Under the pieces are notes generated by a model. It was not told where the DNA came from and made no database searches. It was given only the letters and a program-made list of their open reading frames with translations. This document shows positions 1 to 33,347 of a stretch of DNA of 33,347 nt, one piece after another. Made by a program: the position numbers and the translations under genes. The stretch covers positions 1 to 33,347 of the forward strand of contig JASEHA010000002.1 in assembly GCA_030018795.1 (NCBI GenBank). The letters run 5' to 3'. This DNA comes from a bacterium. GTDB taxonomy: Bacteria > UBA9089 > CG2-30-40-21. Position 1 is the first letter of the stretch. Each line of letters starts with the position of its first letter.

Positions 1-660
1 GGCACCAATGCAAGCATTCAGCAGGCAGCCACTGGGCAGTATGGATCGTTTACCACAAGCTGGACAGTTGATGTCCAGGCGTATGGGACAACAACCGTGA
101 CAGCCAGAGGGGTGAGCGTGGCCACAAATGTGTTCAATATCCAGCCGCAGCTTGTCAGCGTTGTACCGACACAGGGGAGTGTTGGCACTATAGTGACGAT
201 TCTGGGCACAGGCTATGCATCAGGCGATAATATTACGGTAGCGTTTGGGACAAATGTTGGTATTCAGCAGGCAGTTGCCGGACAATATGGCTCATTTAGT
301 ACAAGCTGGACAGTTGATACCCAAAAGTATGGAACATGCACTATTACTGCCAGCGGTGTGAGTGTTGCTACGAATGTATTCAGTATCCAACCGCAGGTGG
401 TCAGCATTGTCCCGATACAAGGAAGCGTTGGCACAGTAGTAACTATTAGCTGCACAGGGTATGGTCCAAGCAACACAATCAGAATCAGCTTTGGCACCAC
501 AAATACCCTGACAACAGCTAAGGCAAGTAGTTATGGAACTATGACAACAATCTTTACCGTGAATACTCAAGTATTTGGAACAACAAGTGTTGTTGCTACA
601 AGCCAGAATACTAAGGACATTTCAGGCAAATATATTAACAATTTCAAGGAGTTTAAGATA
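1..660 (+). repeat. 5' block of 'YGSW/F-type' (B1) modules: one truncated plus two complete. It ends in an atypical Lys-rich junction linker.
   Basis: Modules read ...GQYGSFTTSWTVDVQAYGTTTVTARGVSVATNVFNIQPQLVSVVPTQGSVGTIVTILGTGYASGDNITVAFGTNVGIQQAVAGQYGSFSTSWTVDTQKYGTCTITASG... The third module ends with SQNTKDISGKYINNFKEFKIL (about 601-663) instead of the usual F-F-I-Q-P-Q linker. Confidence 0.75.
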
Positions 661-3600
661 CTTACAGCCATTTATATCACCCCAACTGAGGGTACGGTAG
701 GAACATTTGTGACTGTAACTGGTAATGGTTATGGCCAGATTGAGAACATAAGAATAGACTTTGGGACAACTATAAGTATGGTTAGTACTCAAAGCACAGC
801 AAATGGTAGCTTTACAGCAGTGTTTACTACCAATCCACAACCTACATTAGGTGTAATGGTTACAGCTGTTGGTGCAGTTACACAATATCCATCCAGCCGG
901 GTATTTGGTGTGGGGGCAAAGATTACCAGCGTTGTCCCTTCACATGGAACGGTTGGGACATTGGTCACAGTGGATGGCAATGGGTTTGGCAGCGAGGAAA
1001 CAATAATCTTAAGTTTTGGGCATACATCAGAGATAGCTGAGACAATGTCATTAATTGATGGAATATTCTCAAGCATCTTTGTCATTGATACTCAAAGCTA
1101 TGGATCAACAACCATTACTGCGGTTGGACAGACAACAAATCTGTCATCAAAGATAGACTTTAAGATAGAGCCAGAACTGGTAAACGTTATCCCAACTTGC
1201 GGTACGGTAGGGAGCAGTGTTACCATTAGTTGTACAGGTTATGGTGCCGAAGAGGCTGTATATGTTTCCTTTGGCAATGTAGAGAGTATTGCGACTGGTA
1301 TTGCTGGCATTGATGGGACACTTACCGTAGTATTTACAATAGATACTCAAAGCTATGCCACAAAGAGCGTAAAAGCAACTGGCATTACAACACAGGAAGC
1401 AGCAGTCAATACCTTCTACATTACCCCACAGCTGGTAAATGTTGTCCCAACTTGCGGTACAGTAGGGAGCAGTGTTACTGTTACGGGTACAGGCTATGGT
1501 GCGGGCGAAACGGTATGGGTAGATTTTGGCAAGACCATGAGCATAACTATGGGTGAAGCTGGTGAGGCAGGAGTATTTACCGCAGTGTTTACGGTTGATA
1601 CCCAGAGGTATGGGACACGGACGGTTGTAGCAACAGGCCAGCTGACACAACATGCTGCCAGTAATACATTCTATATTACCCCAGAATTAGTAAGCGTTAC
1701 ACCAAAGCTTGGTACGGTTGGCAGCTTTGTAACTGTGTTTGGCAGCGGCTATGGAGCAAGTGAAACCGTAAAGATAGGCTTTGGCAAGACTGTAAGCATT
1801 GTCAATAACATGACAGGTGCGGATGGTACATTTACGGCTGTCTTTACAGTTAATACCCAGGAATATGGGACAAAGACAATGATGGCAACCGGTCTGGCAA
1901 CAAATCATGCAGCAAGCAATACATTCTGTATTATAACCAATATAATAAGCGTAACACCTTCAACTGGTACGGTTGGAAGATCTGTGACTGTCAAGGGTAC
2001 TGGCTATGGTAATGGTGAGGTGGTGCTGGCAAACTTTGGCAAGACATCAGGTATTAATAGTGGTACGGCAAGCACTAATGGTACATGGACAATAGTATTT
2101 ACAGTGGATACTCAAAGCTATGCCACAAAGAGCATAAAGGCAACAGGGGTTGTAACACAGTATGCGGCTGTTAATGATACCTTCTTCATTATACCAAAGG
2201 TAGTAAGCGTAACACCTTCGACTGGTACGGTTGGAAGCTATGTGACCATATATGGCAATGGCTATAGCAGTGAAGAGCATGTGTGGGTTGACTTTGGTCA
2301 AACCATGACCATAGCCACAGGTATTGCCAGCAGCGATGGCAGCTTTACCGTGGTGTTTACTATTGATACCCAGAGGTATGCCACCAGGACCATAACTGCT
2401 ACAGGTGTTGACATTCAACTGCATAGTGCGGCAAATACCTTCTATATCACGCCAGAGGTGGTAAGTGTTACACCAAATAGCGGGACAGTGGGGACATTTG
2501 TAACCGTGTACTCCACAGGCTATGGTTCAGAAGAGGCTGTGCAAATAGACTTTGGCAAGACTGTGAGCATGGTTATGGGTGCAACCAGTGTGGATGGCAC
2601 ATTTACGGTGGTATTTACCATTGATATGCAACGATATGCGACAACAACTGTGATGGCAACAGGGGTTAGCACTCAGCACAGTGCAGCAAACACTTTCTAC
2701 ATTACTCCAAAGATAGTCAGTGTTACACCGTCGATGGGCACGGTTGGAACATATGTCACCATATACTCTACGGGTTATGGCTCAGGTGAAGCTGTGCAAG
2801 TAGACTTTGGGCAGACAGTGAGCAGGATTAGCTGTCTGGCGGGCAATAATGGTACATTTACAGTAGTGTTTACGGTTGACACGCAGGCATATGCCACTAA
2901 GACCATAACAGCTATTGGTGTTAGTACACAGCATGGTGCTATAAATACCTTCTATATTATGCCTCAAGTAGTAAGGGTAACACCTTCAAGGGGTACGGTG
3001 GGCACAGATGTTACAATTAGTTGTACAGGCTATGGTCCAGGAGAGGCTGTACAGGTTTCGTTTGGCAATGTAGGTAGTATTGCTACAGGTATTGTCAGCA
3101 ATGATGGGACATTTAGTGTTGTATTCGAGATTGATACCCAAATCTATGCAACCAAGACGATAACCGCTTTAGGGCTTGAGACACAGTATCCAGCAGTTAA
3201 TACCTTCTATATTACACCAGAGGTGGTAAGTGTAGTTCCAACAACAGGTACGGTTGGCAGTTGTGTTACCATTAATGGTACTGGATATGGTGACAATGAA
3301 ACCATAAATGTTAGTTTCGGTGTAGCAGGGAATATTACTTCAAGCCAGTCTTCAGCTATTGGGACATTTATTGCCACATTTACTGTAGATACCCAATACT
3401 ATGGGACAAAGACGGTTAGTGCCATTGGCGTAAATACGCTGCATGCAGCAGAGAATAGATTCTTTATTACCCCGCAGATGGTCTGGGTAACACCGAATTC
3501 AGCTACAGTAGGAACGATTGTGACCATTAAGGGAACTGGGTATGGGTTGTATGAAACAGTGAAGATTGATTTTGGCAATACATCAATCATAAAATCTGCA

Positions 3601-6600
3601 ACCACAGATTGGGCAGGAACATTCAGTTGTACCTTTACCATAAATACGCAGGTTTATGGGGATAAGACTATTACTGGTACTGGACAGGCAACAAAGTGTC
3701 CAGCAGGGATAAACTTCTTTATACGTGGTGCCATTACCCATATTTCACCACACTCAGCTACAGTAGGGGCAAGGATTACTGTCTTTGGTAATGGGTTTGG
3801 TGAAGAGGAGTTTATTACTATAGACTTTGGTACATATGTAGGAATAAATGCTGATTATGCCCATAGTAATGGCAGCTTTAATATTGCCTTTATAGTTAAT
3901 ACGCAACCTTCTGGCAGCCTGACTGTTTGGGCAACTGGTGGAAGTACATGGGAGAGGGATGAGCATCTCTTTATTATTACTGGTATTACCATGGTTAAGC
4001 CGACATCAGGACCGATAAGTACAGTGGTAACACTGTCTGGTGCAGGGTATTATGCGAGCGAATATGTCCAGATTGACCTTGGGACAGCTATTAATATTAA
4101 CAGACCTTTGACAGATGCAAATGGTAAGTTCTATACAACCTTTACCATTAATGATCCACAGTTCTATGGGATAAAGACCATTACTGCTGCTGGTCAGACA
4201 TCTAATCGTCTGGATATTGACTGGTTCAAGATTACCCCAAGGGTATACTTAATAAGCCCGTCAAGGGGTACGATAGGCACACCAATCATTATTAAGGGTG
4301 ATGGTTGGGAGCCAACCCTGAATTATCCGAATATATATCCAAATACGGTCTGGATTGAGGTAGACTTTGGTAGTCATGTGTGGAGAGGTATTGATCCTGA
4401 TACAGGTATCAGTCCAAGAACATCAGAACTTGGTACATTTACAGCTATGATTGATGATGCTGGTTCTCAACCAGGCGGGAGCATCTCTGTGACCGTGTCA
4501 GAGGCAGATAATCCAACTCTGATGGTTAAGGTACCATTCTATATTGAGGGTGAGATCACAAAGATTGAACCATCTATTGGTACGGTTGGCTCTCAAGTGA
4601 CGGTTGAGGGTCGTGGTTATGGTAATCTTGAGGGTGTGAGAATAGACTTTGGGACATCATGGGGGATTGTGCCCAGTACCAATAATAAAGCTGATAGTCA
4701 GGGTGTCTTTAGCACGGTATTTGTAATAGATATGCAGCCATGTGGCTCCACCACGGTCAGGGCTACTGGAGAACAGAGCAAGGTAACCATGACTAAACCA
4801 TTTGCTATCTTACCAAATATTATTACCCTGAATCCGAGTACTGGATTCTCGGGGATGATTATTCGGCTTGAAGGTAATGGGTTTGGATCATCAGAGGCAA
4901 TCAAAATAGGGTTTGGGACAACACCAACCATGCAGATAACAAGTACAGATGTAAATGGTTGGTTTGGGACAACCTTTACTGTGGATGTTCAGGCAAAGGG
5001 TGAGGTAAATATTCCGGTAATTGGTCTTAATTCTAATGTTATGGCCACAAGCACCTTCTGGATGCAGTCAGGGATTACACTAATAACGCCGAGTATCGGG
5101 ACGGTTGGAGTGACTGTAACCGTATATGGTGCTGGGTTCTGGCCAAATAGTGGTGTAACCATAGATTTTGGGAAAACACCAGCTATTAATGCAGCAAGTC
5201 CTGTATCTGCTTCATCCATGGGGACATTCTGTGCTACATTTGTAGTGAACTCTCAAAGCTATGGAACGACTACTGTCAGGGCAAAGAATTATAATGTAGA
5301 ACAGTATAATTGGGCAATTGATGATGATTACTTCTTTATCAAGGCTAATATAGCGACTGCTGTGCCTGCTGCTGGAACAGTAGGCAGGGTGGTGTCTATT
5401 ATCGGGGCAGGTTATAAATATAATGAGATAATAGATGTGAAATTTGGGACGACAAATAAGATAGCAACTACTGTTGCAAGTTTTGAGACAGGATACTATG
5501 GTGATGGCGGGACATTTGCAACAACCTTTACGGTTGATATGCAGGCATATGGGAATGTGACCATTGAGGCTGTTGGCAGGACCTCTGGTGCAAAGGGTAA
5601 TAGGATGTTCCTGCTTAGTGGTAATATTACCCTAATAACACCTTCTATTGGTACAGTGGGGACATGGGTAAGTATAACCGGCAATGGATATGCAGCCTCA
5701 GAGATTATTCGAATTGACCTGGGCACAACAAAGACGATTACCCTGGCTACAGCAACCTCTGGCGGCAACTTTAGTACAAGATTTATGATTGATAATCAGC
5801 CATATGGAACAACAACGGTTACTGCTTATGGAAATATATCGAAGCAGCAGATAAATGGCAAATTTAAGGTTATGCAGAGGATTGCCAGTGTTTCGCCATC
5901 CTCTGGTAGTACTGGAAACGTGATTACAGTTACTGGTGATGGTTATCATGCCGGTCAGGGGATAGGATTAAGCTTTGGAAGTACATCAAATATTGTCTCT
6001 ACAATAGTGGGTGCAAACGGCAGGTTTGAGGCTGTGTTTACGGTTGACATGCAGCCTTATGGTTCAAGGAGCATAGTAGCAATAGATACTGAAGGGCTTG
6101 TTGGTGAAGCAACCTTTAAGATTATGGCTAATATATCTCTGGTTTCTCCATCTCAATCACCGGTAGGAACAACCATTAGTATAGAGGGTAATGGGTATGG
6201 CAGAACAGAACAAATGTTTATCCTCTTTGCCAATAATCCGGTTGAGGATGCTACTGATATATGGAGTGATGCGAATGGTTGGTTTAGTGGGAGTTTTGTA
6301 GTAGACAGTCAACCCTATGGGACAACAACAATTCTTTGTTATGGTATGACTTCTAACGCAAAGGGTGAAAATTATTTATTGGTTATACCAAAGATTATTT
6401 CAATTACACCTGTCTCCTGTAGTGTTGGCAGTGTGGTAAGTATTGTTGGGGCAGGGTTTGTACCAACAGATGATATTACCGTTAGTTTTGGGACAACACA
6501 AAATATTAGGAATATTGTGACCTCAAGTATGGGTACATTCAGCATGGAATTTACGGTTGATGTTCAGCCTTATGGGACAGCAACCTTAGTTGCTATGAGT

Positions 6601-9600
6601 GCAATAACCAGGGTTGAGGAATATCTCAATATTTTGCCAAGGGTTATCATGGTTTCTCCATCCCAGGGTACTATTGGCAGTTATGTTATGATTATGGGTA
6701 ATGGGTATGGGTCAGGCGATATTATCCAGGTTAATTTTGGTAAGGCATCAAGCATCTGTAGGACAATAGCAAATGAAGTAGGTGAATTTATAGCAGGGTT
6801 TATGGTTGATACTCAGGTCTATGGCAATACAATTATTTCAGCAAAGGGTATAAAGGCTGGTACAGCTACAGGCAACTTTATCATTCTTCCTGAATTAATC
6901 AGGGTTGAGCCTTCAATGGGTACGGTTGGTACTCCGGTTATTGTTTCAGGTCAGGGTTATGCTGCCTCAGAAACTGTATATATCAGGTTTGGGAATAATA
7001 TGGAGCCGATAGCTGATACTATAACCAATGAATTGGGGATATTTACGGCTGCCTTTGTTGTGAATACTCAGAGTTTTGGGACAACAACTGTTAATGCTAT
7101 TGGTGTCAACTCTTCATCATCAGCTAATTATTTCTTTATTACACCGCAGTTCTATGAGGTTGCACCGACAAGTGGTACAATAGGCATATCAATAACCATT
7201 CGCGGAAATGGATATACTGCAAATGACCTTATCACTATTGATATTGGAACCACTCCTGAGATATTGAAGAATAAACTGGCTGAGCCTGATGGCTCCTTTA
7301 TCTTAAGCTTTACAGTAAATACCCAGGTTTTTGGGACATGCACTATTGTCGCTAAGGGTATGTATTCATCTACAGCTAAGAATCTATTCTTTGTTGTTCC
7401 GCAGATAGTTGAGATTACGCCAACCATTGGTACGGTGGGAACAATAGTTAACTTAAGCGGTAATGGGTATATAAGCGGTGAAAGAATAAAGGTTGGCTTT
7501 GGGCAGATTGAGTCAATGACAACTATGGTAGCAGATACAGTCGGACAATTCTCAAACATATTTGCTATTGGTACCCAACCTTATGGGACAACAACAGTTA
7601 CGGCAACAGGGCTGATGAGTGAGAGTCAGGCATATACAAGGTTTATGGTTACTCAGCAGATAGTTTCTATATCACCTCAAGCAGGAACAATCGGGACAAT
7701 AGTGACTGTGGTTGGTAATGGTTATGGTTTATCTGCAGCTGTTCGCATAGACCTTGGCAGTATACAAAGCATTGCTCTGGTAAATTCAAATGTAAATGGT
7801 GTATTTACAGCTATATTTACGGTTGGACTGCAGACAGTGGGAACAAAGACAGTAACGGCAACAGGATTAAATACTGGTGTGGTATCAATGGTTGCATTCA
7901 AGATTAAGCCAAATATCTATTTGATTACACCAACAGAGGGTACGGTTGGGACGATAATTACCTTATGTGGTAATGGATATGGTGTTTATGAGACTATTAA
8001 TGTTGACTTTGGAACAACAAAAACAATCATGTCATTTAGTGCTTCAACTGGTGGGACATTTACAAAGACCTTTACTATAAACACTCAGGGTTATGGTACA
8101 ACCACGGTTATAGCCAGAGGGATTAGTGATGAGAGTATCCGAACAGTGATGATTAGAGGCAAGATGACCCTGATTACTCCAATCAAGGGAACAATAGGGA
8201 CATTTATTACTATCAGCGCTATAGGCTATAGGACAGGTGAAACTGTAAGGGTAAGCTTTGGGACCACTGTTACCCTGTCAACAATTCAAGCTACAGAGGC
8301 CGGGACATTTACCGTGATATTTACAGCTGATAATCAGCCTTATGGGACAAATACAATCTCAGTTTATGGTATCAGTTCAACTGAGAATATAATGGCAGGT
8401 TTTGCTGTAGATCCAAAGGTATACTATGTGTATCCGATTGCTGGTCCAAAGGATGCTACGATTGATGTCAGGGGTAATGGTTATGGTAAGAATGAGACAA
8501 TAAGGGTTGATTTTGGTCAGAGTCAGGCAATCATAGCTGTGATTGCAAATGCAGACGGCAGTTTTGCCGGACAGTTTAATGTTACGGATCAACCCGGTGG
8601 CGTAGCAACCATTACCGCTATTGGTATGACTACTGGGGCAAGGGATGAGTATGATCTGCAGTTTACTGTCAAGCCTGGTATTGTCTCTATGACGCCGACA
8701 AGAGGGACAGTGGGCACGATTATCAGGGTGTTTGGCAGCAACTATGTGCCAAGTGCAATAATCAGGATTGATTTTGGTGACAGTAAGAGTATTACTATCA
8801 GGCAGGCAGCTATAGACGGCACCTTTGATATCAGTTTTACGGTTGACACTCAACGTTGTGGCTGGCAGACGGTTGTAGCTACTAATGTTGATAATCCAAC
8901 TCAGACCGATTGGCGAGGATTTACCATAATAGGCCGAATAGTAACAAGTACACCAACAAGGGGCACTGTAGGGACAGTGGTCTCGATAGCTGGTGATGGA
9001 TATGGAGCAGCTGAATTAGTCAGGATTGATCTTGGTGTAACCTCAGGGATTAAGGCAATGGTCTCAACAACAAATGGTGTGTTCTCAGGCAGCTTTAGTG
9101 TAGATGCTCAAGCTTATGGGACATGCACCATTATTGCTAGTGGTCAGACTTCTGGTCAGTCTACCACATCTACATTCTTTGTTACACCTCGAATCAAGAC
9201 AGTAACACCAAATACTGGTACAGTGGGAACATCTGTGACCGTTATTGGTGATGGTTATGAGGCAGCAGACTTTATCTGGATTAATCTGGGAACAATGAAG
9301 AGCATTAGTTATGCAACCACAGATAATCTGGGGGTATTTAATGCAGTATTTACGGTTGATACTCAAGTTTATGGCACAACAACGATAAAGGCAATAGATG
9401 TTGTTTCGTCTGAGGCAACATTCTTTATTAAGCCGCAGGTTTACAGCGTCCTGCCGACATCTGGAACAGTAGGAACAGTGGTAACAGTATCTGGCACAGG
9501 TTATGCTGCTAATGACACTATAACTGTTGGTTTTGGTACAAATGCTACTATTCAAACGGCAGCAGCAGATATACGCGGATGGTTTAGTACAACATGGACA

Positions 9601-21600: not shown

Positions 21601-24600
21601 GGCACAAAGACCATTAAGGCTATAGGCAGCAGCGGGACAGCGATAAGCAGATTTATCATTACCCCGCAGGTTTATCTTGTTACGCCAGATAGGGGAACAA
21701 TTGGCACAGCAGTAACCATCAAGGGTGCTGGATATGCGGCAAATGATACATTAAGGGTTGATTTTGGCAATACAAATGGTATTAAGGCAGCAACAGCAAC
21801 AGGCAGCGGCAGTTTTGTGACCATATTTACAGTGAATACTCAAGGGTATGGGGCGACTATGATTAAGGTTAGCGGTGTGGATGCAACTGCTGAAAATAGC
21901 TTCTTTATCCAGCCAAATGTTTATCTGGTCTCACCGAGCAAGGGAACGATTGGGTGCGAGGTTGAGGTTAAGGGTACTGGTTATGATGAAAATGATGGGC
22001 TAACCATTGGGTTTGGGAATAAAGCCAATATTGGCTCTGCCCTGGCAGATATAAATGGGTATTTTAGGACAACATTTATTGTTAATACTCAAATCTTTGG
22101 TACAACAACCATTACTGTCAGCGGTATAGATACAGCGGCAAATACATTCTTTATCCAGCCGCAGATTCATAGTGTAATGCCAGCACGTGGCTCAGTTGGC
22201 AGCATGGTTACCATTGCTGGTTGTGGTTATGGTGCAGATGACAATATCAATGTTACCTTTGGAACAAGTGCAGGCATTAAGCAGGCTGCAGCAGATGTTA
22301 ACGGCTGGTTTAGCACAGTCTTTACGATTGATACTCAAGTGTTTGGGACAACGAGTATTGTTGCTAAGGGTATGGTAGCTGCATCAGCAATAGCAAGTAA
22401 TGTATTCTTTATCCATCCGCAGGTATCGCAGGTAAGCCCGGCTAATGGTACGGTTGGAACAATGGTGAATATATCTGGTACAGGTTATGCAGCCGCAGAC
22501 GTATTGACAATAGCCTTTGGTACGAATAACAATATCCAGACAGGCGTGGCAGATAGCCGTGGCAGGGTTAGCCTGACATTTACAGTTGATACTCAAATGT
22601 TTGGGACAACCTGTGTGACGGTTAGCGGCTCTTTATCCATGACTGCAACCTCAAGCTTCTATATTCGTGCCAGTGTGTATAGCGTCAGCCCGGCTAATGG
22701 TACGGTTGGAACAGGGGTAAACATCAAGGGTTCAGGCTATGCAGCCTATGATGTTATTACCCTTGGTTTTGGAAATAATGCCAATATTGGTGCTGCCAGT
22801 GCAGATGATAAGGGATTGTTTACAGCAAGCTTTGTGGCTGATACTCAAGCATATGGTGCGACTACGATTGTGGCTACTGGTGTAAATTCAGAAAGGGGCG
22901 AGAAGAATACATTCTTTGTCAAACCTGCGATATATCGGGTAAGCCCGGTTGCAGGCACCATTGGCACACAGGTTAATATTAATGGTACTGGATATGCGGT
23001 TGGTGATAGTATTACTGTTGTCTTTGGAAACAGGAGTGGTATGGCAACGGCTACAGCCGCAGGTGATGGCCGATTTGAGACAGGGTTTGTGGTGGATACT
23101 CAGGTGTATGGTACTACAACCATTATGGCTCTGGGTGTAACCGCTGGTGCTGCAGCAAATACATACAAGATACTGCCGGAGCTTTACTCAGTTGTACCGA
23201 ATAAGGGTACGGTAGGGACAATGATTACAATCAAGGGCAGCGGCTATGCAGCTATGGATGCTATTACCATTGCCTTTGGGAATAATCCAAACAGGAAGCA
23301 GACAATAGCCAATAGTACTGGCTGCTTTGAGACAAGCTTTACGGTTGATATGCAGGGTTGTGGGACAGTAAGCATTATTGCTGCAGGTTCATCCTCAATG
23401 GCTGCCATAAACTTCTTTGTTATCAAGCCAGAGGTATACTCTGTATCGCCAGCTGTAGGGACAGTTGGAACAGTAGTTGAGGTTATGGGTGCTGGTTATC
23501 CGGCATCTGATACAGTTTCATTGAGCTTTGGCTTAACCAATAATCTTAAGACAGCAATGACCAATAATGTGGGTATGTTTGCGGTCAGCTTTACCGTAGA
23601 TGTTCAAGCCTTTGGTTCAACAACCATTACTGTAACAGGTGCAGGCAATTCGATTGGTTCAAGCAGCTTCTTTATTACCTCATCTCTGTATCAAGTGGTA
23701 CCTATCAGTGGCACGGTTGGTACAGTGGTTGAATTGCGTGGTGCTGGGTATGGGGCAACAGACACAATCAGGATATCGTTTGGTGAGACCGTAACCATTA
23801 AGACAGCGGTATCTGACAGCTATGGACATATAGTAACTACATTTACCGTAGATACGCAAAGCTATGGCTTAACCGTGATAACGGCTGCAGGCAAAGGGAG
23901 TGCTCAAAACAGCTTTACCATTCTGCCGAGCATCTATTCTGTAACACCATATAGGGCTACAGTGGGAACAATAGTAACAGTGCGTGGTGCTGGATATGCC
24001 AGGAATGAGAGTATTACCATAAGCCTTGGGGATAACCAGAATATTCAAACAGCGATTGCAGCAAATAATGGTCTATTTGTAGCCTTATTTACAGTAGATA
24101 CGCAAAGCTATGGCTTGACCATGGTTAAGGCTACTGGTGTAAATGCTGGAACAGCGACAAACAGCTTATTTATCTATCCACAGGTATACAAGGTAAGCCC
24201 AACAAGGGGTACTATTGGGACGATTGTTGGTATTTATGGCACAGGGTATGCAGGAAATGATAGCGTAACCGTGTCATTTGGGAATAATGCCAATATCAAG
24301 ATTGACACTGCGGGGATAAATGGTTATCTGGAGACAAGCTTTGTGGTTGACACTCAAGGGTGTGGAATCAAGACCATTGTGGCCACAGGTGCCCTGTCAG
24401 AGGCAGCCACAAATACCTTTACCATTACCCCAAATCTCTACTCAGTCGTGCCTTCATCTGGTACAGTTGGAACTACGATAAAGGTTTGCGGCACAGGGTA
24501 TGGCCCAACTGAGTTGATTACCATAGGGTTTGGTGATAATGTAAACATTGGGCAGGTATTCTCTGATAATCGTGGCTATTTTGCAAAGAGCTTTGTTGTT

Positions 24601-27600
24601 GACCTGCAGGATTATGGAACAACTACTGTGAGTGCGTCAGGTAATGTTTCTGGAACAGCAACAAATACATTCTTTATCAAACCAAATATCTATGCTGTTG
24701 AACCTACAGAGGGGACAATAGGCACAATAGTAATGATTACTGGCAGCGGGTATGAAACAAGTGATACTGTTACCATAGCCTTTGGGGCAACACCAGTAAT
24801 TCAGCAGGCAGCAGCAGATAATAATGGTTGGTTCTCAAGCGTATTTACGGTTGATACACAGAGTTATGGGACAATGGTTATTCGTGCTACTGGTGCATTG
24901 TCAGAGTCAGCAGTGAATAGCTTTAAGATTAAGCCGCAGGTTTATTCAGTGCTGCCAACAGAGGGAACAGTAGGGACAGTGGTCAGTATCAAGGGTAATG
25001 GTTATGCAGTTATTGATGTTGTTACTGTTGCCTTTGGGACAAATAGCAATATCAAGAAGGCAAATGCCAATAGCTGCGGTATTTTTGAGACAAGCTTTAC
25101 TGTTGATACTCAGGTGTATGGAGTAACAAACATTATTGCTGCTGGCACGTCATCAGAATCAGCTGCAAACAGCTTCTTTATCCATGCCAATGTCTATCGG
25201 GTAAGCCCTGTCAAGGGTACGGTAGGCAGTCAGGTTGAGGTTAGAGGTACAGGTTATGTATCTGGTGATACAATCAGGGTTGATCTTGGCAAGACATGGA
25301 ATATTCAATCGAGTACAGCAGATAGTGCTGGCAGGTTCCAGACCAGCCTTGTGGTTGATGTTCAAGCCTATGGTTCAACAACAGTCAGGGCAACAGGTGT
25401 ATCCTCAGAGTCAGCAGTAAACAGCTTTACCATTATGCCGGATATTTATCAGGTAATACCAACTACTGGAAGTGTGGGTACAAAGGTAACCATAAAAGGT
25501 AATGGGTATGCAGTCTCAGACTTTGTAGCCGTTGCCTTTGGGAATAATTCAAACATTGCAGCTGTGACAGCAGACAGGAATGGCTCTGTTCAGGCAGTAT
25601 TTACAGTTGATACTCAAGGTTTCGGGCAAAAGGTTATAATAGCATGCGGGGCATCCTCAGATGAGGCAGTTAATAGCTTCTTCATCAAGTCTCAGCTTTA
25701 TTCTGTATCGCCATCAAGGGGTACAATTGGTCAGACTATTGAACTGAAGGGTACTGGTTATGGAATGATGGATACAGTCATGATAACCTATGTTGGCAGC
25801 ACAGAAACAACAACAGCTGATGCTAATGGATACCTTACTGCAACATTTGTGGTAGCAAGTCAAGTGTTTGGGACAAAGACAGTAACTGCTCTTGGTCAGG
25901 TAGCAGGCTCAACCGAGAATGTGTTCAGTGTAATACCATCTGTCTACTCAGTAATACCAACAAGGGGTGGTGTTGGCAGCGTGGTCACTGTCAGTGGCTC
26001 TGGTTATGCGGCAAATGACCATATCACCATTGGTTTTGGGACAAATAATAATATTGCCAGTATTCTCTCAGATAATACTGGCAATTTTGAAACAACCTTT
26101 GCTGTTGATACCCAGCCTGTGGGCATAACAACGATTATTGCCTCAGGGTTGCAGTCATCTTCAGCATATAACTATTTTGCCATTGTTGGCGGTATTATCC
26201 TTCAGCCGGCAAGGGGCACGGTTGGATGTGTGGTCGGGATTTCAGGGACAGGGTTTACCGCAAACAGTAATGTAAGGATTGACTTTGGTCTGACAAAGAC
26301 CATTGCCCTGATATTGACAAATGCAAGTGGAGCATTCTCAGGGGCATTTACGGTTGATACTCAAGCGTATGGGACATGTGCGGTTTCAGCCAGTGGCGGT
26401 GCCTATGCAGCACTTGAGTTTGTTATCTTGCCGCAAGTGTTTAGTGTCAGCCCAACTGAGGGCAGTGTGGGAACGATTGTAAATATTAAGGGTAATGGTT
26501 ATAAAGGACTGGAGGCTATTGAGATAGACTTTGGGACAACAAGGTTTACAACTAATGCTGGAATATCTGGTGACTTTAGTGTTGTATTTACGGTTGATAC
26601 TCAAGTCTATGGACGGAAGACGATTATAGCTATAGGTGCAGCAGCAGGTTCAGCGGCAAATAGCTTCTTTATTCGTGCAGCAATTTATAACCTGACACCA
26701 ACAACAGGGACAATTGGGACAATGGTTACGGTTGGTGGGACAGGTTATGCTATAAATGATGCCCTTACCATATTATTTGGTACGAACAATAGCATTAAGA
26801 CAGGTGCGGCGGGGGTGAATGGCTCGTTTGAGACAACATTTATAGTTGATACACAACCATATGGAACAGCTACCATTACAGTAGCAGGTGCTTCTTCTGA
26901 GACAGCCTTGAGACGGTTCTTTGTGAGTCCACAGGTGTTTTCAGTTGTACCTTCAGCAGGTACGGTTGGATGTCAGGTTATGGTTAGCGGTACTGGCTAT
27001 GCCGCAAGTGAGGCAATTACCATAGGCTTTGGGACAACCAATAATATTCAGACAACAGTAACAGATATTCGTGGTTACTTTACAACAATATTCACAGCAA
27101 ACACCCAAAAATATGGGACAATAGCGGTTAAGGCAACTGGTGTACAGTCTGCTTCGGCTGAGAATACATTCTTTATCCAGAAGAATATCTACTATGTCAG
27201 TCCATCAACAGGCACAGTAGGACAGCAGGTTGAGATTCGCGGGACAGGATACAGCAACTTTGATAATATCAGGGTAGACTTTGGCAGCACATTAACTATT
27301 TGTACTGCTGTGGCAAATACAAATGGCTGGTTCAAGACATTCTTTACGGTTGATACTCAAGGTTTTGGCTCAACTACAATCATGGTTGCTGGTGTTGCCA
27401 TGGATAAGGCAGAAGCAGTATTTTCTATTATGGCTGATATGCCTGCTGTTCAGCCAACTACTGGTAGTGTTGGTACTGTGGTAACTATTAAGGGAACAGG
27501 CTACTTGGGCTCTTCAGATATAATTATAGACTTTGGTGATATGGAAAATATCGTTCTTACTCAAACAGATGCAAGAGGTTATTTTGTGGCTGCATTTACA

Positions 27601-30600
27601 GTTAATACTCAAGGTTATGGCACAAAGACCATAGCTGCTTATGATACTATAGACAATCGGGTTGAGAGAACATTCCTTATCCTGCCGAGTGTATATCTGG
27701 TGACGCCAGCTATTGGTACGGTTGGTCAGACAATAACAGTTAAGGGTGCAGGATTTGCAAAATATGACAATCTGACAATTGATATGGGAGACAGGCAAGG
27801 TATTACCAGCATTGTTACAGATCCACGCGGTGTGTTTGAGACAAGCTTTGTGGTTGATACTCAAGTGGTTGGTAAGAAGATGGTTGTTGTCAGTGGTACT
27901 ATGTCTACACAGGCAACAAGCAGCTTTACCATTACTGGTGGGATTATTATTTCACCATCCATTGGAACAATAGGGAAGGTGGTAGAGGTAAAGGGTAGTG
28001 GATTTGGCGGAGAGGATGTCATTAGTGTCAGTTTTGGGACAACAAGTCATGTGGCTACAGTAGTCAGTAGCAATCGTGGTACCTTTAGTACAATGTTTGC
28101 TATGGATGGACAGGTTTATGGGACAACAACCATTTCAGCTACAGGTAAGAGCTATGCTGAAGGCTATATCTTTGTCAAGCCAAACTTCCATCTGGTAATA
28201 CCAACAATAGGCTCAGTGGGGACAGTGGTCAGGATTGCGGGTACAGGTTATGCAGCATCTGATCTGGTGACCATAGCCTTTGGCAATACCATAGTGATTG
28301 GGACAACAATGGCTTCAGTGAGCGGATACTTTGAGACAACCTTTACGGTTGATACCCAGAAGTATGGCTCAACATATATCAGGGCAACAGGTGCAGCATC
28401 AGATGCAGCCTTGAATACATTCTTTGTTAATCCTGATCTTTACCTTGTATCACCAAATAAGGGACCGATTGGAACCGTGGTTGAGATACGTGGTACAGGC
28501 TATGATGCCATTGATACTGTGAATGTAACATTTGGCAGCACACAGAACATAATTACAGGCGTTGCCTCTGGTAATGGTGCATTTAGTGTTACATTTGGTG
28601 TGAATACGCAACCCTATGGGACAACAACCATTATAGCTGCTGGTACAAGGTCTGCTTCAGCTAATAATGCCTTTACCATTATGCCATCTATCTACTCTAT
28701 CCTTCCAAAGTCAGGTACAGTTGGAACAGTGGTTGAGGTAAAGGGGATTGGGTATGGTGTTAATGATGATATTATCATTGGATTTGGTGCAAGCGGTGCA
28801 TTGGCAGAAGGTGATGCTAATGCTAATGGTATCTTTGTTATTCATTTTACAACAGATACTCAAGCCTTTGGAACAACCACGATTATTGCGGTTGGCGTAA
28901 ATTCTACTCTTTGTGCCGGGACATTCTTTATCTATCCAAACCTCTATTCTGTCAGTCCAAATGCAGGAACAATTGGAAGGATGGTTGAGGTCAAGGGATC
29001 AGGGTATGCATCTGGTGAGGCTGTTGCAGTCAGGTTTGGGACAAATATGTTTTTCCAGAACATAACAGCTGATACAAGGGGTTATGTTGAGACCGTGTTT
29101 AATGTAAATACTCAGGTTTATGGAACTACCACGGTGAAGCTTACCGGAGTAATTGCCGGGAGTGCTACCAATACATTCCGTATCATGCCAAATATCTATG
29201 CTATAACACCAACTAAGGGTACGGTTGGAGCTACTGTTGAAATAAAGGGTGCAGGGTATGCGGCTACAGAAACAATCAGGATTGACTTTGGGAATGCTGT
29301 TAGTATTAAGACAACAATAGCCGATAATCTTGGTTGTGTAAATACGAGCTTTACGGTAAATGTTCAGCCATATGGTCAAAAGGTTGTTAGATTAACAGGG
29401 AGTTTATCTACGGTAGTTGAAGATACATTTACTATTATTCCAGCCATATACTCAGTAACACCAGTTTCAGGCTCTGTGGGTACAGTGGTTGAGGTAAAGG
29501 GTTCAGGCTATGCGGCAACAGATTCTATCACGATAGATTTTGGCAATAATGGCCGTATTCAGACAGCTATAGCAAATGGCAATGGTTACTTTACAGCCTC
29601 ATTTACAGTAGATACACAAGGGTATGGGACAACAACCATTACGGCAAGTGGTGCATCCTCATCATCAGCCATAAATACATTTATGATTGTTGGTGGGATC
29701 ATGGTTACACCGACTTCTGGTACAGTGGGTACCAATGTTTATGTTGAAGGGACAGGGTTTGATGTAAATGAGCCAGTGAATATTGATTTTGGCACAACAC
29801 CTGCTGTTGTTACCCTGAATACAGACAATCGTGGTGTATTTACCGGGTACTTTACCATTAATACACAGGCCTATGGTCAGGTAGTGGTAAAGGCAGTTAA
29901 TTCTACGACAGCTCAAACCAGCTTCTTTATCATGCCAACTCTGTATATGGTAACACCATCCTTTGGTACGGTCGGAACAGTGGTCACGATTAATGGTAAT
30001 GGTTATGATGATACAGAGGCAGTAACGGTCAGGTTTGGTGCAACTACATTACCTGTGGTGAATAGTGATAATATTGGCTGCTTTGAGGCAAGGTTTACAG
30101 TAAATACGCAAAGCTATGGGACAACAACGATTCGGGCAACAGGTGCTGGATCTGCTGAGGCAAGGAATGTATTCTTTATCAAACCAATGATATATTCTGT
30201 AAACCCAGTAACAGGTACGGTTGGTACTGTGGTTGAAATAGTTGGTGTTGGTTATAATAAGATGGATGCGGTGAGCATTGACTTTGGGACAACAGCAGCA
30301 ATAAAGCAGACAACAGCTGATATAAGCGGATACTTTAAGACAACATTTACTGTAGATACACAATCGCTTGGGACAACAACCATCAAGGCAACAGGCAGCC
30401 TTTCTGAGGCAGCATATGGAGTATTTGGTATTCGTCCATCCCTGTATTTAGTAAGTCCAACAACTGGTACGGTTGGAATGATGATTGATATTTATGGTCG
30501 TGGGTATGCTCAGGGTGAAGGGATTACCATTGACTTTGGCAACAATAAGGCTATCAAGACAACCATTACAGATGAAAAGGGATACTTTGCTACCTCCTTT

Positions 30601-33347
30601 GAAGTAGATACTCAAGTGTTTGGCAAGACAACCATCACAGCTAAGGGCATAATGAGTGCAGAAAATACCTTCTTTATCAAGCAGGATATTGCCTCTGTAA
30701 TGCCAAACAAGGGTACAGTAGGAACAGTTGTTTCTATTACTGGTACAGGCTATGCAGCAAGTAATAGTATTACTGTCATGTTTGGAACAAATATCAGTAT
30801 TCAACAGGCAGCAAGTGATGAGAAGGGATACTTTGAGGCAGTGTTTACTGTTGATATTCAAGTGTTTGGGACAACAACGATTACAGCTGCAAGTGCTAAG
30901 AATACATTCTTTATTATCCCGGATGTTTATCTGGTAAGTCCTACAATCGGTACAGTAGGGAGTATGGTTGAGATTCGTGGGACAGGCTATAAGCAAAATG
31001 ATAATGTAAATATCAGCTTTGGGACAACAGCAAGTATTCAAACCAAACTTGCGGATGTTAAGGGCTGGTTCAAGACAACCTTTACTGTGGATACTCAAGT
31101 CTATGGTCTGACAACTATTCGTGCTACAGGTATTGATACAGCTGTAAATAGCTTCTTTGTTGAACCGGCAATATACTCAGTCAGACCGACCTCAGGCTCT
31201 GTGGGTACAATTGTTACCATAAAGGGTACAGGGTATATGTCCTTAGATACCCTGACAGTGATGTTTGGCAACAATCCAAACATCAAGATGGATGCAGCAG
31301 GGGCTAATGGCTCGCTTGAGACAACCTTTGCGGTGGATACTCAAGCACTTGGCACAACAACGATTACTGTCAAGGGTACATTTGGTCAGGCTTCAAATGT
31401 GTTCAATATTGTAGCAACAATCAATATCAGTCCAACTATTGGTACTGTAGGTACAATTGTAAGCATTCAGGGTGATGGGTTCAAGGCAAACAGCCTGGTA
31501 AGGATTGGCTTTGGTAATGTAACAACTATAACCACGATAATGAGTGACCCAGCAGGTGCCTTTAGCGGGACATTTGTGGTGGATACTCAAGGCTTTGGAC
31601 AAAAGGTTGTCTCTGCTCTGGCTAAAGGCTATGCAGAGGAGACATTCTCTATTATTCCTGAACTGTATTTAGTATCACCGTCAAAGGGCAGTGTTGGCAC
31701 AGTAGTTGAGATACGTGGTACTGGTTATGATGTTATGGATGATATAACCATAGCCTTTGGGACAACACTGGGGATTACAAGTACAGTTGCAGATACACGA
31801 GGTTATTTCAGCACAATATGGACAGTGGATACACAAGGTTATGGGACAACAACGATTGTTGCCAGCGGTGTGGGTGTGGCAAGCAACGTATTCTTCATCT
31901 TGCCGCAGGTATACAGTGTGCTGCCGACATTTGGCACGGTTGGCACAATAGTTACTGTCAGTGGCACAGGTTATGCGGCAGGAGACATTATAACCGTTGG
32001 CTTTGGCACAAAAGCTAATATTCAGCAGGCAACAGCTGATATTTACGGATGGTTCTCTACAGCGTTTACGATTGATACGCAAAAGTATGGGACAACGACC
32101 ATTACTGCTACAGGCATAGCTGTAGCATACAACAGGTTCTATGTTTTGCCAGAGGTATACAGCGTATTACCAACATCTGGCACAGTTGGTACAATGGTAA
32201 CCATTCGTGGTACAGGTTATGCAGTAAGCGACAGGATAACCGTAGCCTTTGGCACAAATGCCAATATTCAGCAGGCAACAGCAAGTGTTCATGGGTCATG
32301 GACAGTGGCATTTACGGTTGATGTGCAGATGTATGGGACTACAACGATTAGTGCCAGTGGTGTGAGTGTGGCAAGCAATGTGTTCTACATCTTGCCAGAG
32401 GTATACAGCGTGGTACCAACACTTGGTACGGTTGGCACACTGGTAACCATACAGGGCACAGGCTATGCAGCAGGCGACAATATCACCATTGGCTTTGGCA
32501 CCAATGCCAGCATTCAAACGGCAGTGGCAAGTGTCCATGGGTCATTCACAGTAGTGTGGACAGTTGATACTCAAAGTTATGGCACAACAACCATCACGGC
32601 TGCAGGAATAGCCACAGCGTACAACAGGTTCTATATCCTGCCAGAGGTATACAGCGTACTGCCAATATCTGGCACGGTTGGCACGATAGTTACTGTCAGC
32701 GGTACAGGCTATGCGGCAGGAGACATTATAACCGTTGGCTTTGGCACCAATGCCAGCATTCAGACGGCAATGGCAGGTGTGTATGGGTCATTCACGGCTG
32801 TGTGGACAGTTGATACTCAAAGCTATGGCACAACAACCATTACCGTTGCAGGTATCGCCACAGCGTACAACAGGTTTGTTATTCTGCCAGAGGTATACAG
32901 AGTGCTGCCGACATCTGGCACGGTTGGCACAATCGTTACTGTCAATGGTACGGGTTATGCCGCAAACGACAGTATAACCGTTGGCTTTGGCACAAATGCC
33001 AATATTCAGACAGCAGCAGCAGATACACGCGGCTGGTTCAGCACAACATGGACAGTTGATACTCAAGCGTATGGGACAACAACCATTACTGCAACGGGTG
33101 CCAGTGTTGTTGCAGGCAATACATTCTACATCGAGCCGCAGGTTGTCAGCGTGCTGCCAGCAGAAGGCACGGTTGGGACAGTGGTAACCATCAGTGGTAC
33201 AGGCTATGCCGCAGGTGATAGTATAACTGTCAGCTTTGGCACAAATGCTGCTATTCAGACAGCGATAGCAGGTACATACGGATCATTTACTGCAGTGTGG
33301 ATAGTTGATACTCAAAGCTATGGCACAACAACCATTACCGTTGCAGG
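1..33347 (+). CDS. Internal fragment (5' and 3' partial) of a giant tandem-repeat protein, probably extracellular or cell-surface. At least 11,115 codons, composed entirely of IPT/TIG-like Ig-fold modules.
   Basis: Manual frame +1 translation of nt 1-33345 gave no TAA, TAG or TGA. The repeat motif is in the same register at nt 1 (GTNASIQQAATGQYGSFTTSWTVDVQAYGTTTV), nt 15001 (TGYAAGDGITIAFGTNNNIK) and nt 33241 (TNAAIQTAIAGTYGSFTAVWIVDTQSYGTTTITVA). All module lengths are multiples of 3. The supplied ORF track has no frame-1 + strand entry, as expected for an ORF with no stop in the window. All listed ORFs are 216 aa or shorter and lie in other frames. No start-proximal or C-terminal non-repeat sequence is present, so both ends are outside the window. 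Confidence 0.9.
1174..3720 (+). repeat. Sub-block A1: 10 consecutive homogeneous modules of 255-258 nt. The signature is 'VDTQ-x-Y-A-T-K/R' with linker 'TGV-x-TQH-x-AANTFYITP(E/Q)VVSVTP'.
   Basis: Pro positions are 1192, 1447, 1702, 1957, 2215, 2473, 2728, 2983, 3238 and 3493. Motifs SYATKSVKATG, SYATKSIKATG, RYATRTITATG, RYATTTVMATG, AYATKTITAIG and IYATKTITALG occur here, whereas YGT is used almost everywhere else. Confidence 0.7.
4243..4554 (+). repeat. Outlier module of 104 codons, the longest in the window. It has two loop insertions and lacks the VDTQxYG motif.
   Basis: Translation: VYLISPSRGTIGTPIIIKGDGWEPTLNYPNIYPNTVWIEVDFGSHVWRGIDPDTGISPRTSELGTFTAMIDDAGSQPGGSISVTVSEADNPTLMVKVPFYIEGE. 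Pro-to-Pro spacing is 312 nt (4258 to 4570), against about 255 nt in neighbouring modules. Confidence 0.7.
5074..5625 (+). repeat. Two adjacent extended modules of 92 codons each.
   Basis: The Pro spacing 5089-5365-5641 is 276 nt twice. The first module has an extended linker (RAKNYNVEQYNWAIDDDYFFIKANIATAV). The second has an insertion before the F-strand (ASFETGYYGDGGTFATTFTVDMQ). Confidence 0.65.
9439..19686 (+). repeat. Zone B1: 41 modules, mostly 246/249 nt, dominated by 'GTGYAA-x-D-x-ITIAFGTN-x-x-IQ-x-A-x-(A/G)-x-Y-G-S-(W/F)-T-T-x-(W/F)-TVDTQ' with linker 'FFIQPQVVSV-x-P'. A few other subtypes are interspersed.
   Basis: Examples: VVSVSPNSGTVGTVVIITGTGYAASDSVTVAFGTNNNIQQAVASEYGSWTTMFTVNVQVYGTTTITASG (about 10957) and VTSVLPTTGTVGTVVAVTGTGYAAGDGITIAFGTNNNIKQAVASQYGSWTTTFTVDTQRVGTTTITASG (about 14944). 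Pro spacing is 246-252 nt throughout, apart from the trio at 15694-16458. Confidence 0.7.
15694..16458 (+). repeat. Three zone-A-like modules embedded in zone B1. The first lacks the VDTQxYG motif.
   Basis: Module at 15694: IIGIYPTAGAIGLLVTIKGDGYRAGRTVNISFGTIGILTTTTVAASGEFTAFFVIPDDSVGPKTVTAADG. The next two carry the zone-A signatures GNGYGGNETIRIDFGQT and ADGYGSNELIRIQLGTS, with spacings of 255 and 261 nt. Confidence 0.6.
19687..31908 (+). repeat. Zone B2: 49 modules, mostly 252 nt. The type is 'x-(I/V)-Y-x-V-x-P-x-x-G-T-V-G-x-x-V-E-(V/I)-(K/R)-G-x-G-Y ... F-G-(N/T) ... (A/T)-D-x-(R/K/N)-G-(Y/W/F)-F-x-T-x-F-x-V-D-T-Q'.
   Basis: Examples: IYSVTPVSGSVGTVVEVKGSGYAATDSITIDFGNNGRIQTAIANGNGYFTASFTVDTQGYGTTTITASG (about 29446) and VYRVSPVKGTVGSQVEVRGTGYVSGDTIRVDLGKTWNIQSSTADSAGRFQTSLVVDVQAYGSTTVRATG (about 25192). 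Runs of exactly 252-nt spacing occur at 24199-25711 and 26950-27706. Confidence 0.7.
26191..31662 (+). repeat. Higher-order block in which a distinct 'punctuation' module subtype recurs at exactly every 7th module (modules 104, 111, 118 and 125 of my count).
   Basis: Punctuation modules start near 26191 (AIVGGIILQPARGTVGCVVGISGTGFTANSNVRIDFG), 27940 (TITGGIIISPSIGTIGKVVEVKGSGFGGEDVISVSFG), 29695 (MIVGGIMVTPTSGTVGTNVYVEGTGFDVNEPVNIDFG) and 31417 (NIVATINISPTIGTVGTIVSIQGDGFKANSLVRIGFG). Spacings are 1749, 1755 and 1722 nt. The six modules between each pair mostly use the Pro-type linker (F-x-I-x-P-x-x-Y-x-V-x-P, with a few lacking the first Pro) and all use G-x-G-Y, except that module 110 (about 27691) has G-A-G-F. 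Confidence 0.6.
31909..33347 (+). repeat. 3' terminal block of six B1-type modules of 246/249 nt, the last one truncated. Long identical nucleotide tracts are shared between copies.
   Basis: Modules read LPTSGTVGTMVTIRGTGYAVSDRITVAFGTNANIQQATASVHGSWTVAFTVDVQMYGTTTISASG, LPISGTVGTIVTVSGTGYAAGDIITVGFGTNASIQTAMAGVYGSFTAVWTVDTQSYGTTTITVAGIATAYNRF, and so on. Pro codons sit at 31924, 32170, 32416, 32662, 32908 and 33157. Confidence 0.75.

Follow-up and report, generated by a model that had tools for sequence, protein, structure and literature searches.

An uninterrupted 33-kb frame of tandem IPT/TIG-like modules, likely the interior of a giant surface-protein gene of Candidatus Desantisbacteria

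A stretch of bacterial DNA 33,347 nucleotides long (positions 1 to 33,347 of contig JASEHA010000002.1, assembly GCA_030018795.1; the whole stretch is called the window below) can be translated from one edge to the other in a single frame, which raises the question of whether it belongs to one genuine gene and what the product of such a gene would do. It is likely, on the evidence presented here, that the window lies wholly within a giant gene of Candidatus Desantisbacteria which is genuine and maintained by selection, and whose product is a surface fibre or adhesin stalk delivered by the type IX secretion system (T9SS). The frame and its modules are considered first, then their conservation in other genomes, the ends of related proteins and the size of the gene.

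One frame and one kind of module

Scripted six-frame translation found no stop in the 11,115 codons of frame +1, whereas the other five frames contain 262-984 stops each, with a longest open run of 246 codons. From the base composition of the window itself, about 681 stops would be expected in frame +1 (ln P(zero stops) = -703). The part of the product encoded in the window has a mass of 1,148 kDa and a pI of 4.77, and 65% of its residues are T, G, V, I, A or S. The GC content lies between 0.40 and 0.47 along the window, and the GC skew is positive throughout because of a strong codon-position bias (codon position 1 is 37% G and 9% C). A scan of the window revealed neither tRNA nor Rfam RNA, and the visible 11,115 aa are free of signal peptides, transmembrane-like segments and foreign or terminal domains; in a Kyte-Doolittle plot only one 19-residue segment (aa 2132, inside a beta-rich module) rises barely above 1.8, at 1.81. 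Antisense frame -3 contains open runs of 212-246 codons (9088-9825, 30451-31176 and 8380-9015, all on the minus strand), which were considered as genes and read as shadow open reading frames (ORFs) resulting from the codon bias of the repeat.

A hidden Markov model (HMM) of the repeat, derived from the window's own sequence, gives 133 module matches that tile the entire translation essentially without linkers, and the visible array consists of about 134 modules of ~83 aa and of nothing else (Table 1). Since the first match begins well inside the HMM, the gene extends upstream of the window, and since another module is cut at the 3′ edge, it also extends downstream. An earlier, sequence-only reading of this stretch had proposed a single uninterrupted ORF with a protein motif in register along it, both gene ends outside the window and a product above 1 MDa; the translation and the HMM, whose modules stay in register from aa 1 to 11,115, bear this out, as do the cut modules at either edge and the mass of the window part alone.

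Table 1. Features of the window, with positions in nucleotides of the window (HMM, hidden Markov model; ORF, open reading frame; AF2, AlphaFold2; pLDDT, predicted local distance difference test; pTM, predicted template modelling score)
Feature	Position	Strand	Evidence and remarks
ORF interior, frame +1, 11,115 codons	1..33345	+	Six-frame translation, HMM tiling
Module truncated at the 5′ edge, C-terminal 46 residues present	1..138	+	aa 1-46 correspond to HMM positions 37-82
Linker-less head-to-tail array of about 132 complete modules, each 79-91 aa long (usually 82-85)	139..33129	+	HMM, alignments
104-aa variant module carrying two loop insertions (aa 1411-1514)	4231..4542	+	HMM; sole irregular unit; falls within the part shared with ortholog L005
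Module truncated at the 3′ edge, N-terminal 72 residues present	33130..33345	+	HMM
Representative module for structure prediction (aa 3143-3224)	9427..9672	+	AF2: predicted 7-strand Ig-like beta-sandwich, IPT/TIG-like
Three consecutive modules modelled jointly	10945..11691	+	AF2: pLDDT 96.8, pTM 0.84, linker-less
Collinear ortholog support	3025..10902	+	P0094, P0011/L005, P0115, P0026; 73-80% aa identity
Collinear ortholog support	15451..20913	+	P0088 70%, P0104 64%, P0089 85%
Collinear ortholog support	23473..25158	+	P0100 77%
Collinear ortholog support	26083..33345	+	P0028 63%, P0017 85%, P0003 78%

The module consensus, I.P.vysV.Pt.GTVGT.Vti.GtGYaa.d.iti.FGtn..I.t..Ad..G.F.t.FTVDTQ.YGTTTItA.G..s..A.n.Ff, contains one invariant glycine, and P10, five more glycines, Q62 and G65 are conserved in at least 90% of the modules. 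Mean pairwise identity between modules is 41% for protein (maximum 83%) and 52% for DNA; codon positions 1 and 2 of aligned paralogous modules are about 60% identical and position 3 is 37% identical, and different codons are used at 53% of the identical aligned residues. Because neighbouring modules (46% identical) are only slightly closer to each other than distant ones (41%), the alignments point to an old array that would have arisen through regional founder duplications and has undergone little recent homogenisation. Modules of like length lie together: aa 389-1240 is a block of 85-aa modules, 3566-7384 one of 83-aa modules and 7385-9900 one of 84-aa modules, and from 10144 to the end the modules have 82 aa. 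The final six modules are the most alike, with identities of up to 83%; together, these observations suggest that the array expanded regionally from local founder modules and that its 3′ block is younger.

The IPT/TIG family PF01833 went undetected when Pfam was scanned with 2,000-aa stretches of the product, and a module-by-module scan was needed; the sole Pfam match obtained on the 2,000-aa pieces, Gal-bind_lectin, was judged spurious. When scanned singly, 61 of 130 modules match PF01833 weakly (E<=1, best E 1.7e-6) and 27 of the 130 match Big_6; the representative module scores 18.2 bits against PF01833 (gathering score 20.9), and most modules fall under the Pfam threshold. A search of the PDB with the module profile retrieved the IPT/TIG domain D of cyclodextrin glucanotransferases (CGTases; E=0.008), with plexin IPT domains and Bacova_02650 as weaker matches. 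The AlphaFold2 (AF2) model of the representative module, for which the 130 modules served as the alignment, is a seven-strand beta-sandwich (pLDDT 93.3). In Foldseek, with weak E-values of 3e-3 to 5e-2, it resembles neocarzinostatin (0.6-0.7), the IPT/TIG domains of EBF3/EBF1 (TMq 0.60-0.68), CGTase domain D (0.59) and Bacova_02650 (0.57). The module is accordingly best modelled as a divergent IPT/TIG-like immunoglobulin (Ig) beta-sandwich with the E-set fold. The repeat family of its own that had been suggested from the letters is thus not wholly separate; what remains of that suggestion is a divergent subfamily of the IPT/TIG or E-set Ig-like fold, and an exhaustive profile search found thousands of database proteins that share the module subfamily or fold. 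Some orthologous fragments are already labelled 'IPT/TIG domain-containing protein' by NCBI. Plexins, EBF, CGTase domain D and the Bacteroides SGBP Bacova_02650 (all PF01833) have the same fold class and a weak but consistent sequence similarity, whereas the known IPT/TIG proteins contain 1-6 such domains and the window more than 130.

In the joint model of three consecutive modules, hardly any residues separate the final strand of one module from the first strand of its successor. The top multi-domain matches of this model are the extenders of giant adhesins, namely 6xi3 (Lap-type), SiiE 2yn5 and MpIBP 4p99, and it also matches IPT/TIG proteins, titin I9-I11, the surface-layer (S-layer) protein 7ptp and the biofilm protein Bap 7c7u. 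Because the global TM-score against the giant-adhesin extenders is only ~0.3, the likeness to them is one of kind and not of exact geometry.

Conservation in other genomes and soundness of the assembly

Homologs of the window product are overwhelmingly proteins of Candidatus Desantisbacteria metagenome-assembled genomes (MAGs) from groundwater studies, nearly all of them 'partial' and on short contigs; the repeat-adhesin-like architecture expected from the sequence-only reading is borne out, as is an uncultivated lineage as the likely source. The contig L005 (PFKI01000073, Candidatus Desantisbacteria GCA_002784185.1) aligns with nt 3789-7200 of the window as one collinear high-scoring segment pair of 3.4 kb with 79.6% DNA identity; at the protein level identity is 73.6%, dN is 0.169, dS is 0.503 and dN/dS is 0.34, and the indels are in-frame only. 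At least nine further 'partial' MAG proteins align collinearly elsewhere along the window, with identities of 63-85% (Table 1), and since identity at the level of paralogous modules is only 33-45%, these collinear fragments can be regarded as orthologs. The orthologs with identities of 73-85% assign the window to Desantisbacteria. Combined, the orthologous fragments cover 67% of the window protein, and the longest stretch over which module order is reproduced by independent assemblies from different studies is 2,626 aa. One of them, P0003, runs 163 aa of modules past the 3′ edge of the window; a search with this tail gave no fragment above 62% identity. Judged from these alignments, each module appears to keep its individual identity across species.

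On the same grounds the ORF is taken to be a real gene under purifying selection, in which mis-assembly is possible only for the third that lacks ortholog support. A non-coding tandem array with a chance ORF is ruled out by the codon-position asymmetry, the dN/dS value, the in-frame indels and the confident folds. It might also be supposed that the array is a decaying or neutral repeat expansion, a 'junk' ORF held open by base composition and without protein function, as its repetitive and biased composition and a dN/dS that indicates only moderate constraint would allow. Such an ORF would hardly be free of stops over its whole length while the other frames are saturated with them, nor would it be expected to show a dN/dS well under 1, to have only in-frame indels between species, to conserve the fold-defining glycines, the proline and the DTQ.YG motif at 90% or more in modules otherwise 41% identical, and to give AF2 module models of very high confidence; we consider this explanation extremely improbable.

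The possibility that the contig is an assembly artefact, a chimera of shorter paralogous repeat genes or of strains joined through shared repeats, in which no 11,000-codon gene exists, has more to commend it, because genes of this family come out fragmented in short-read MAGs: the relatives are almost all 'partial', on contigs of 1-10 kb, and the related contigs L006, L007 and L001 contain mid-module frameshifts, stops or N-gaps. The range of GC content within the window could be taken in the same sense, and one third of the window (aa 1-1008, 3635-5150, 6972-7824 and 8387-8694) is without support from an independent assembly. However, no exact DNA repeat in the window exceeds 45 nt, and with this and a mean DNA identity between modules of 52%, ordinary assembly k-mers would be unique. 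A chimera would moreover be expected to break the frame or the register at its junctions, whereas the register is perfect over 134 modules; module order recurs in the independent assemblies described above, and two relatives (L001 and L003) also hold one-frame arrays of 22-23.5 kb or more. The mis-assembled concatenation of shorter loci that the sequence-only reading had kept in view is therefore very unlikely, given the shortness of the exact repeats and the collinearity of two thirds of the array with independent MAG assemblies, and a single genuine gene is the reading adopted below.

The length of related arrays is easily underestimated. Homolog searches were confined to lengths near that of the query (1,111-3,336 aa for a 2,000-aa query and 327-879 aa for a 504-aa query), and giant relatives are invisible to such a length-banded search, as in the case of the 5,854-aa product on L001, which never appeared in it. 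Scans of contigs (GTDB representatives and JGI metagenome contigs) gave the relatives L003 (48%) and L004 (best segment 62%). The 23.5-kb scaffold L001 (JACQYP010000058) is all in one frame, broken only by a 20-N gap. From the marine MAG contig L003 (JAHIZN010000456.1, 55,768 nt), the 22.1 kb retrieved (20477-42618) form one frame with 87 modules of the same subfamily, 38% identical to the window, and the gene to which they belong could be larger than that of the window.

Several other loci were examined in this connection. In L006 a frameshift at 9554-9597, where part of a module is missing, interrupts the giant frame within a module, and in L007 stops and N-gaps do so at several positions; these breaks could be assembly errors or genuine decay, in contrast to the intact frame of the window. 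An interpretation of L007 as a multi-gene cluster, or of L001 and L006 as two genes each, was rejected, since the interruptions lie within modules and consist of N-gaps, stops or a frameshift. The largest proteins of the profile search, P0090 (7,284 aa) and P0110 (6,156 aa), score ~20 bits per module and were set aside as distant IPT/TIG arrays of another subfamily. The same modules as in the window also occur on fragments labelled Candidatus Woesearchaeota archaeon (P0018) and Cyanobacteriota (P0107), short contigs that are probably mis-binned.

Ends of related proteins and the route to the cell surface

Among the relatives, the distant P0010 starts with a Sec-type signal peptide, MEAGSIGKRLAVLAGGVCLFVLSSVFWAREAEG, and continues straight into modules with no specialised head. 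N-terminal heads are present in P0087 (an NHL propeller, followed by 26 modules), P0045 (an M23 peptidase and FG-GAP ahead of the module array) and P0031, a complete protein of 2,192 aa in which a beta-helix head and 13 modules are followed by a CHU_C T9SS sorting domain (29 bits, cut-off 27). P0049, a complete Desantisbacteria protein, contains four window-type modules and a T9SS C-terminal domain. On L004 (Ga0210016_1000665), 11 window-type modules (85 bits each) are contiguous with a tail of ~1,860 aa, the terminal domain of which matches the C-terminal domains of PorU and PorZ (E=9e-11), and the gene directly downstream encodes an outer-membrane protein of the PorV/PorQ family (149 bits, cut-off 90) and not an ABC, MFP or TolC protein. 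A counterpart of this tail, 78% conserved, occurs in P0206; the Desantisbacteria MAG from which P0206 comes, AAB296, is also the one with the 85% orthologs of the window. Indeed, every true C-terminus that was inspected or annotated bears a T9SS-type domain (L004/P0042, P0206, P0031, P0049 and nine more), with precomputed PF18962 or PF13585 in P0043, P0044, P0048, P0051, P0053, P0054, P0057, P0063 and P0108. No HemolysinCabind/RTX or type I secretion system (T1SS) signature was found in samples of the window or in the inspected tails, among which that of L004 is the only one contiguous from modules to C-terminus.

Two further features of L004 may be recorded. Its tail (~2560-7800) is made up of roughly 14 copies of a ~115-aa repeat with the pattern F.F.V.Y.D.D.D.P..GYP.V...Y.Y.F.A.D..G, which has no Pfam or NCBIfam match, and at 8280-11223 the PorV/PorQ-family gene is followed by a response regulator and by a GAF + HD-GYP protein. 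The latter two may represent regulators linked to cyclic di-GMP beside an adhesin-like gene.

If the gene of the window is built like these relatives, its product would be a rod outside the cell, composed of at least 134 IPT/TIG-like Ig domains, each distinct from the others. It would be exported by means of a Sec signal peptide and then taken over the outer membrane by the T9SS, which would recognise a C-terminal sorting domain; a PorV-family protein would shuttle the product, and the T9SS would attach it to the cell surface with its N-terminus distal. An Ig-like domain is about 3.5-4.5 nm long, and the 134 visible modules would on this general basis span ~0.5 micrometre. So long a stalk, if adhesins such as SprB, SiiE, LapA and MpIBP are a guide to its role, could hold an adhesive or enzymatic N-terminal head, or the surfaces of its own domains, away from the cell for contact with surfaces or other cells.

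Several points weigh against this scheme. Neither end of the window's gene is seen, and its signal peptide, C-terminal domain, head and full length are extrapolated from relatives. The L004 tail reaches 20.1 bits against Por_Secre_tail, under the cut-off of 23, and L004 may not be orthologous to the window, since alternative registers score alike at 48-58%; its tail was therefore not accepted as the window's own C-terminus. The family has several kinds of tail and possibly many genes per genome, so that the T9SS tail of the sister MAG could belong to a paralog. P0087 adjoins a secretin gene, and the modules themselves reveal no ligand-binding function.

These points bear on an alternative in which the giant Ig-repeat protein is real and secreted but is not a T9SS-anchored adhesin, being exported instead by another system (a type II secretion system with its secretin, or a T1SS) or serving as a surface layer, sheath or matrix scaffold. 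The secretion route does rest on relatives. P0087 lies on L009 (JBFLXS010000012.1) directly downstream of a region (1-10000) with genes for a secretin, an S8 peptidase, an SLT lytic transglycosylase and PD40/Tricorn-like proteins, which is unlike the T9SS context of L004. The presence of S-layer and biofilm proteins among the top structural matches of the three-module model, and the absence of a specialised head behind the signal peptide of P0010, would also suit a scaffold. Nevertheless, the uniform T9SS-type domains at the relatives' C-termini, the PorV-family gene that directly follows the L004 gene and the lack of RTX or T1SS signatures in the window and the inspected tails make this alternative rather unlikely, and delivery by the T9SS is preferred.

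Size of the gene and comparison with known giant proteins

The amount of module sequence in related genomes exceeds that of the window. In AAB296, the closest sister MAG (85% identical where orthologous), the retrieved fragments hold 21,565 aa in 261 modules, and they are mutually non-redundant (at most 48% identical); other sister MAGs show a similar pattern. Because these modules are non-redundant and only 2,570 aa of them are orthologous to the window, the lineage probably carries about 30,000 aa of module, as estimated from these sequences, either in one far longer gene or in several. A single gene that encodes at least 30,000 aa (with 360 or more IPT/TIG-like domains and a mass above 3 MDa), of which the window would be about one third, seems doubtful to us. 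Several genes are favoured because several distinct tails exist in the family, and the surplus in AAB296 could equally consist of paralogs or of contamination of the bin by a distant relative, which are indistinguishable here. Were the single gene real, it would be a 'giant'-class gene in a phylum for which none has been reported, and its product would be the longest known protein of a single, non-homogenised Ig-like domain type, with modules kept distinct over evolution, titin-like but bacterial.

The sequence-only reading had placed the gene among the very largest of prokaryotes. This is an overstatement on the scale of West-Roberts et al. (2023; bioRxiv 10.1101/2023.11.21.568195), where proteins above 10,000 aa, which are present in many phyla, are 'large', 'giant' denotes at least 30,000 aa, and the largest protein reported has 85,804 aa. 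The large and giant genes of that survey are, like the window, derived from metagenomes, longer than 10,000 aa and obscured by fragmentation of assemblies. The Omnitrophota giants described there have numerous transmembrane regions, a divergent SecA_DEAD and mixed enzymatic and attachment domains, whereas the visible 11,115 aa of the window lack transmembrane regions as well as SecA_DEAD and enzymatic domains, and the domain type and the phylum are different. The closest architectural parallel is with the giants of a single domain type, namely the RCC1-type of Oscillospiraceae, SwmB and titin (West-Roberts et al., 2023), since the window likewise repeats one domain over its whole visible length. 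Desantisbacteria, IPT/TIG and T9SS are unmentioned in that study.

With regard to function, by analogy the nearest counterparts appear to be two kinds of bacterial adhesin. The first is SprB of Flavobacterium johnsoniae, a repetitive gliding-motility adhesin of 6,497 aa and a T9SS cargo with a type B C-terminal domain. SprB shares with the predicted product of the window a very large, highly repetitive and beta-rich surface filament; the C-termini seen in relatives are likewise T9SS domains, of CHU_C/type B or of type A, and the PorV/PorQ-family gene directly downstream in L004 recalls sprF after sprB. The window part alone is 1.7 times as long as SprB, its repeat is a different one (the ~83-aa IPT/TIG-like domain), the host is Candidatus Desantisbacteria and not a member of the Bacteroidota, and nothing in the window points to gliding.

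The second kind comprises the T1SS RTX giant adhesins, such as MpIBP (1.5 MDa, with ~120 bacterial Ig-like (BIg) repeats), SiiE (53 BIg) and LapA/MhLap. They resemble the window product in being megadalton proteins the bulk of which is a rod of tandem Ig-like domains, the extender. The gene of the window does not appear to qualify as one of them, because no RTX repeats and no T1SS signal were found in the window samples or in the tails of relatives, which bear T9SS-type C-terminal domains. The repeats of MpIBP are nearly identical to each other, whereas the modules of the window have diverged and have retained their individuality across species, and the inter-domain geometry of these adhesins differs from that of the window model.

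The gene would thus represent an apparently new, unusually large giant Ig-repeat surface fibre or adhesin of an already known kind, and calls for no new mechanism. Its notable features are the number of modules and the long-term preservation of the individuality of each. In one clean 33-kb frame, it documents a probable bacterial surface protein of more than 1.15 MDa in a barely studied candidate phylum, and dozens of Desantisbacteria entries now named 'hypothetical protein, partial' would be pieces of one conserved giant gene. If the link to the T9SS is true, the product would be the largest T9SS substrate known, and one outside the Bacteroidota. Short-read MAGs systematically hide this class of giant-repeat genes. 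An array of ~134 old, diverged and positionally conserved modules that have escaped homogenisation is unusual among giant adhesins, and it raises the question of which position-specific constraint keeps the modules as they are.

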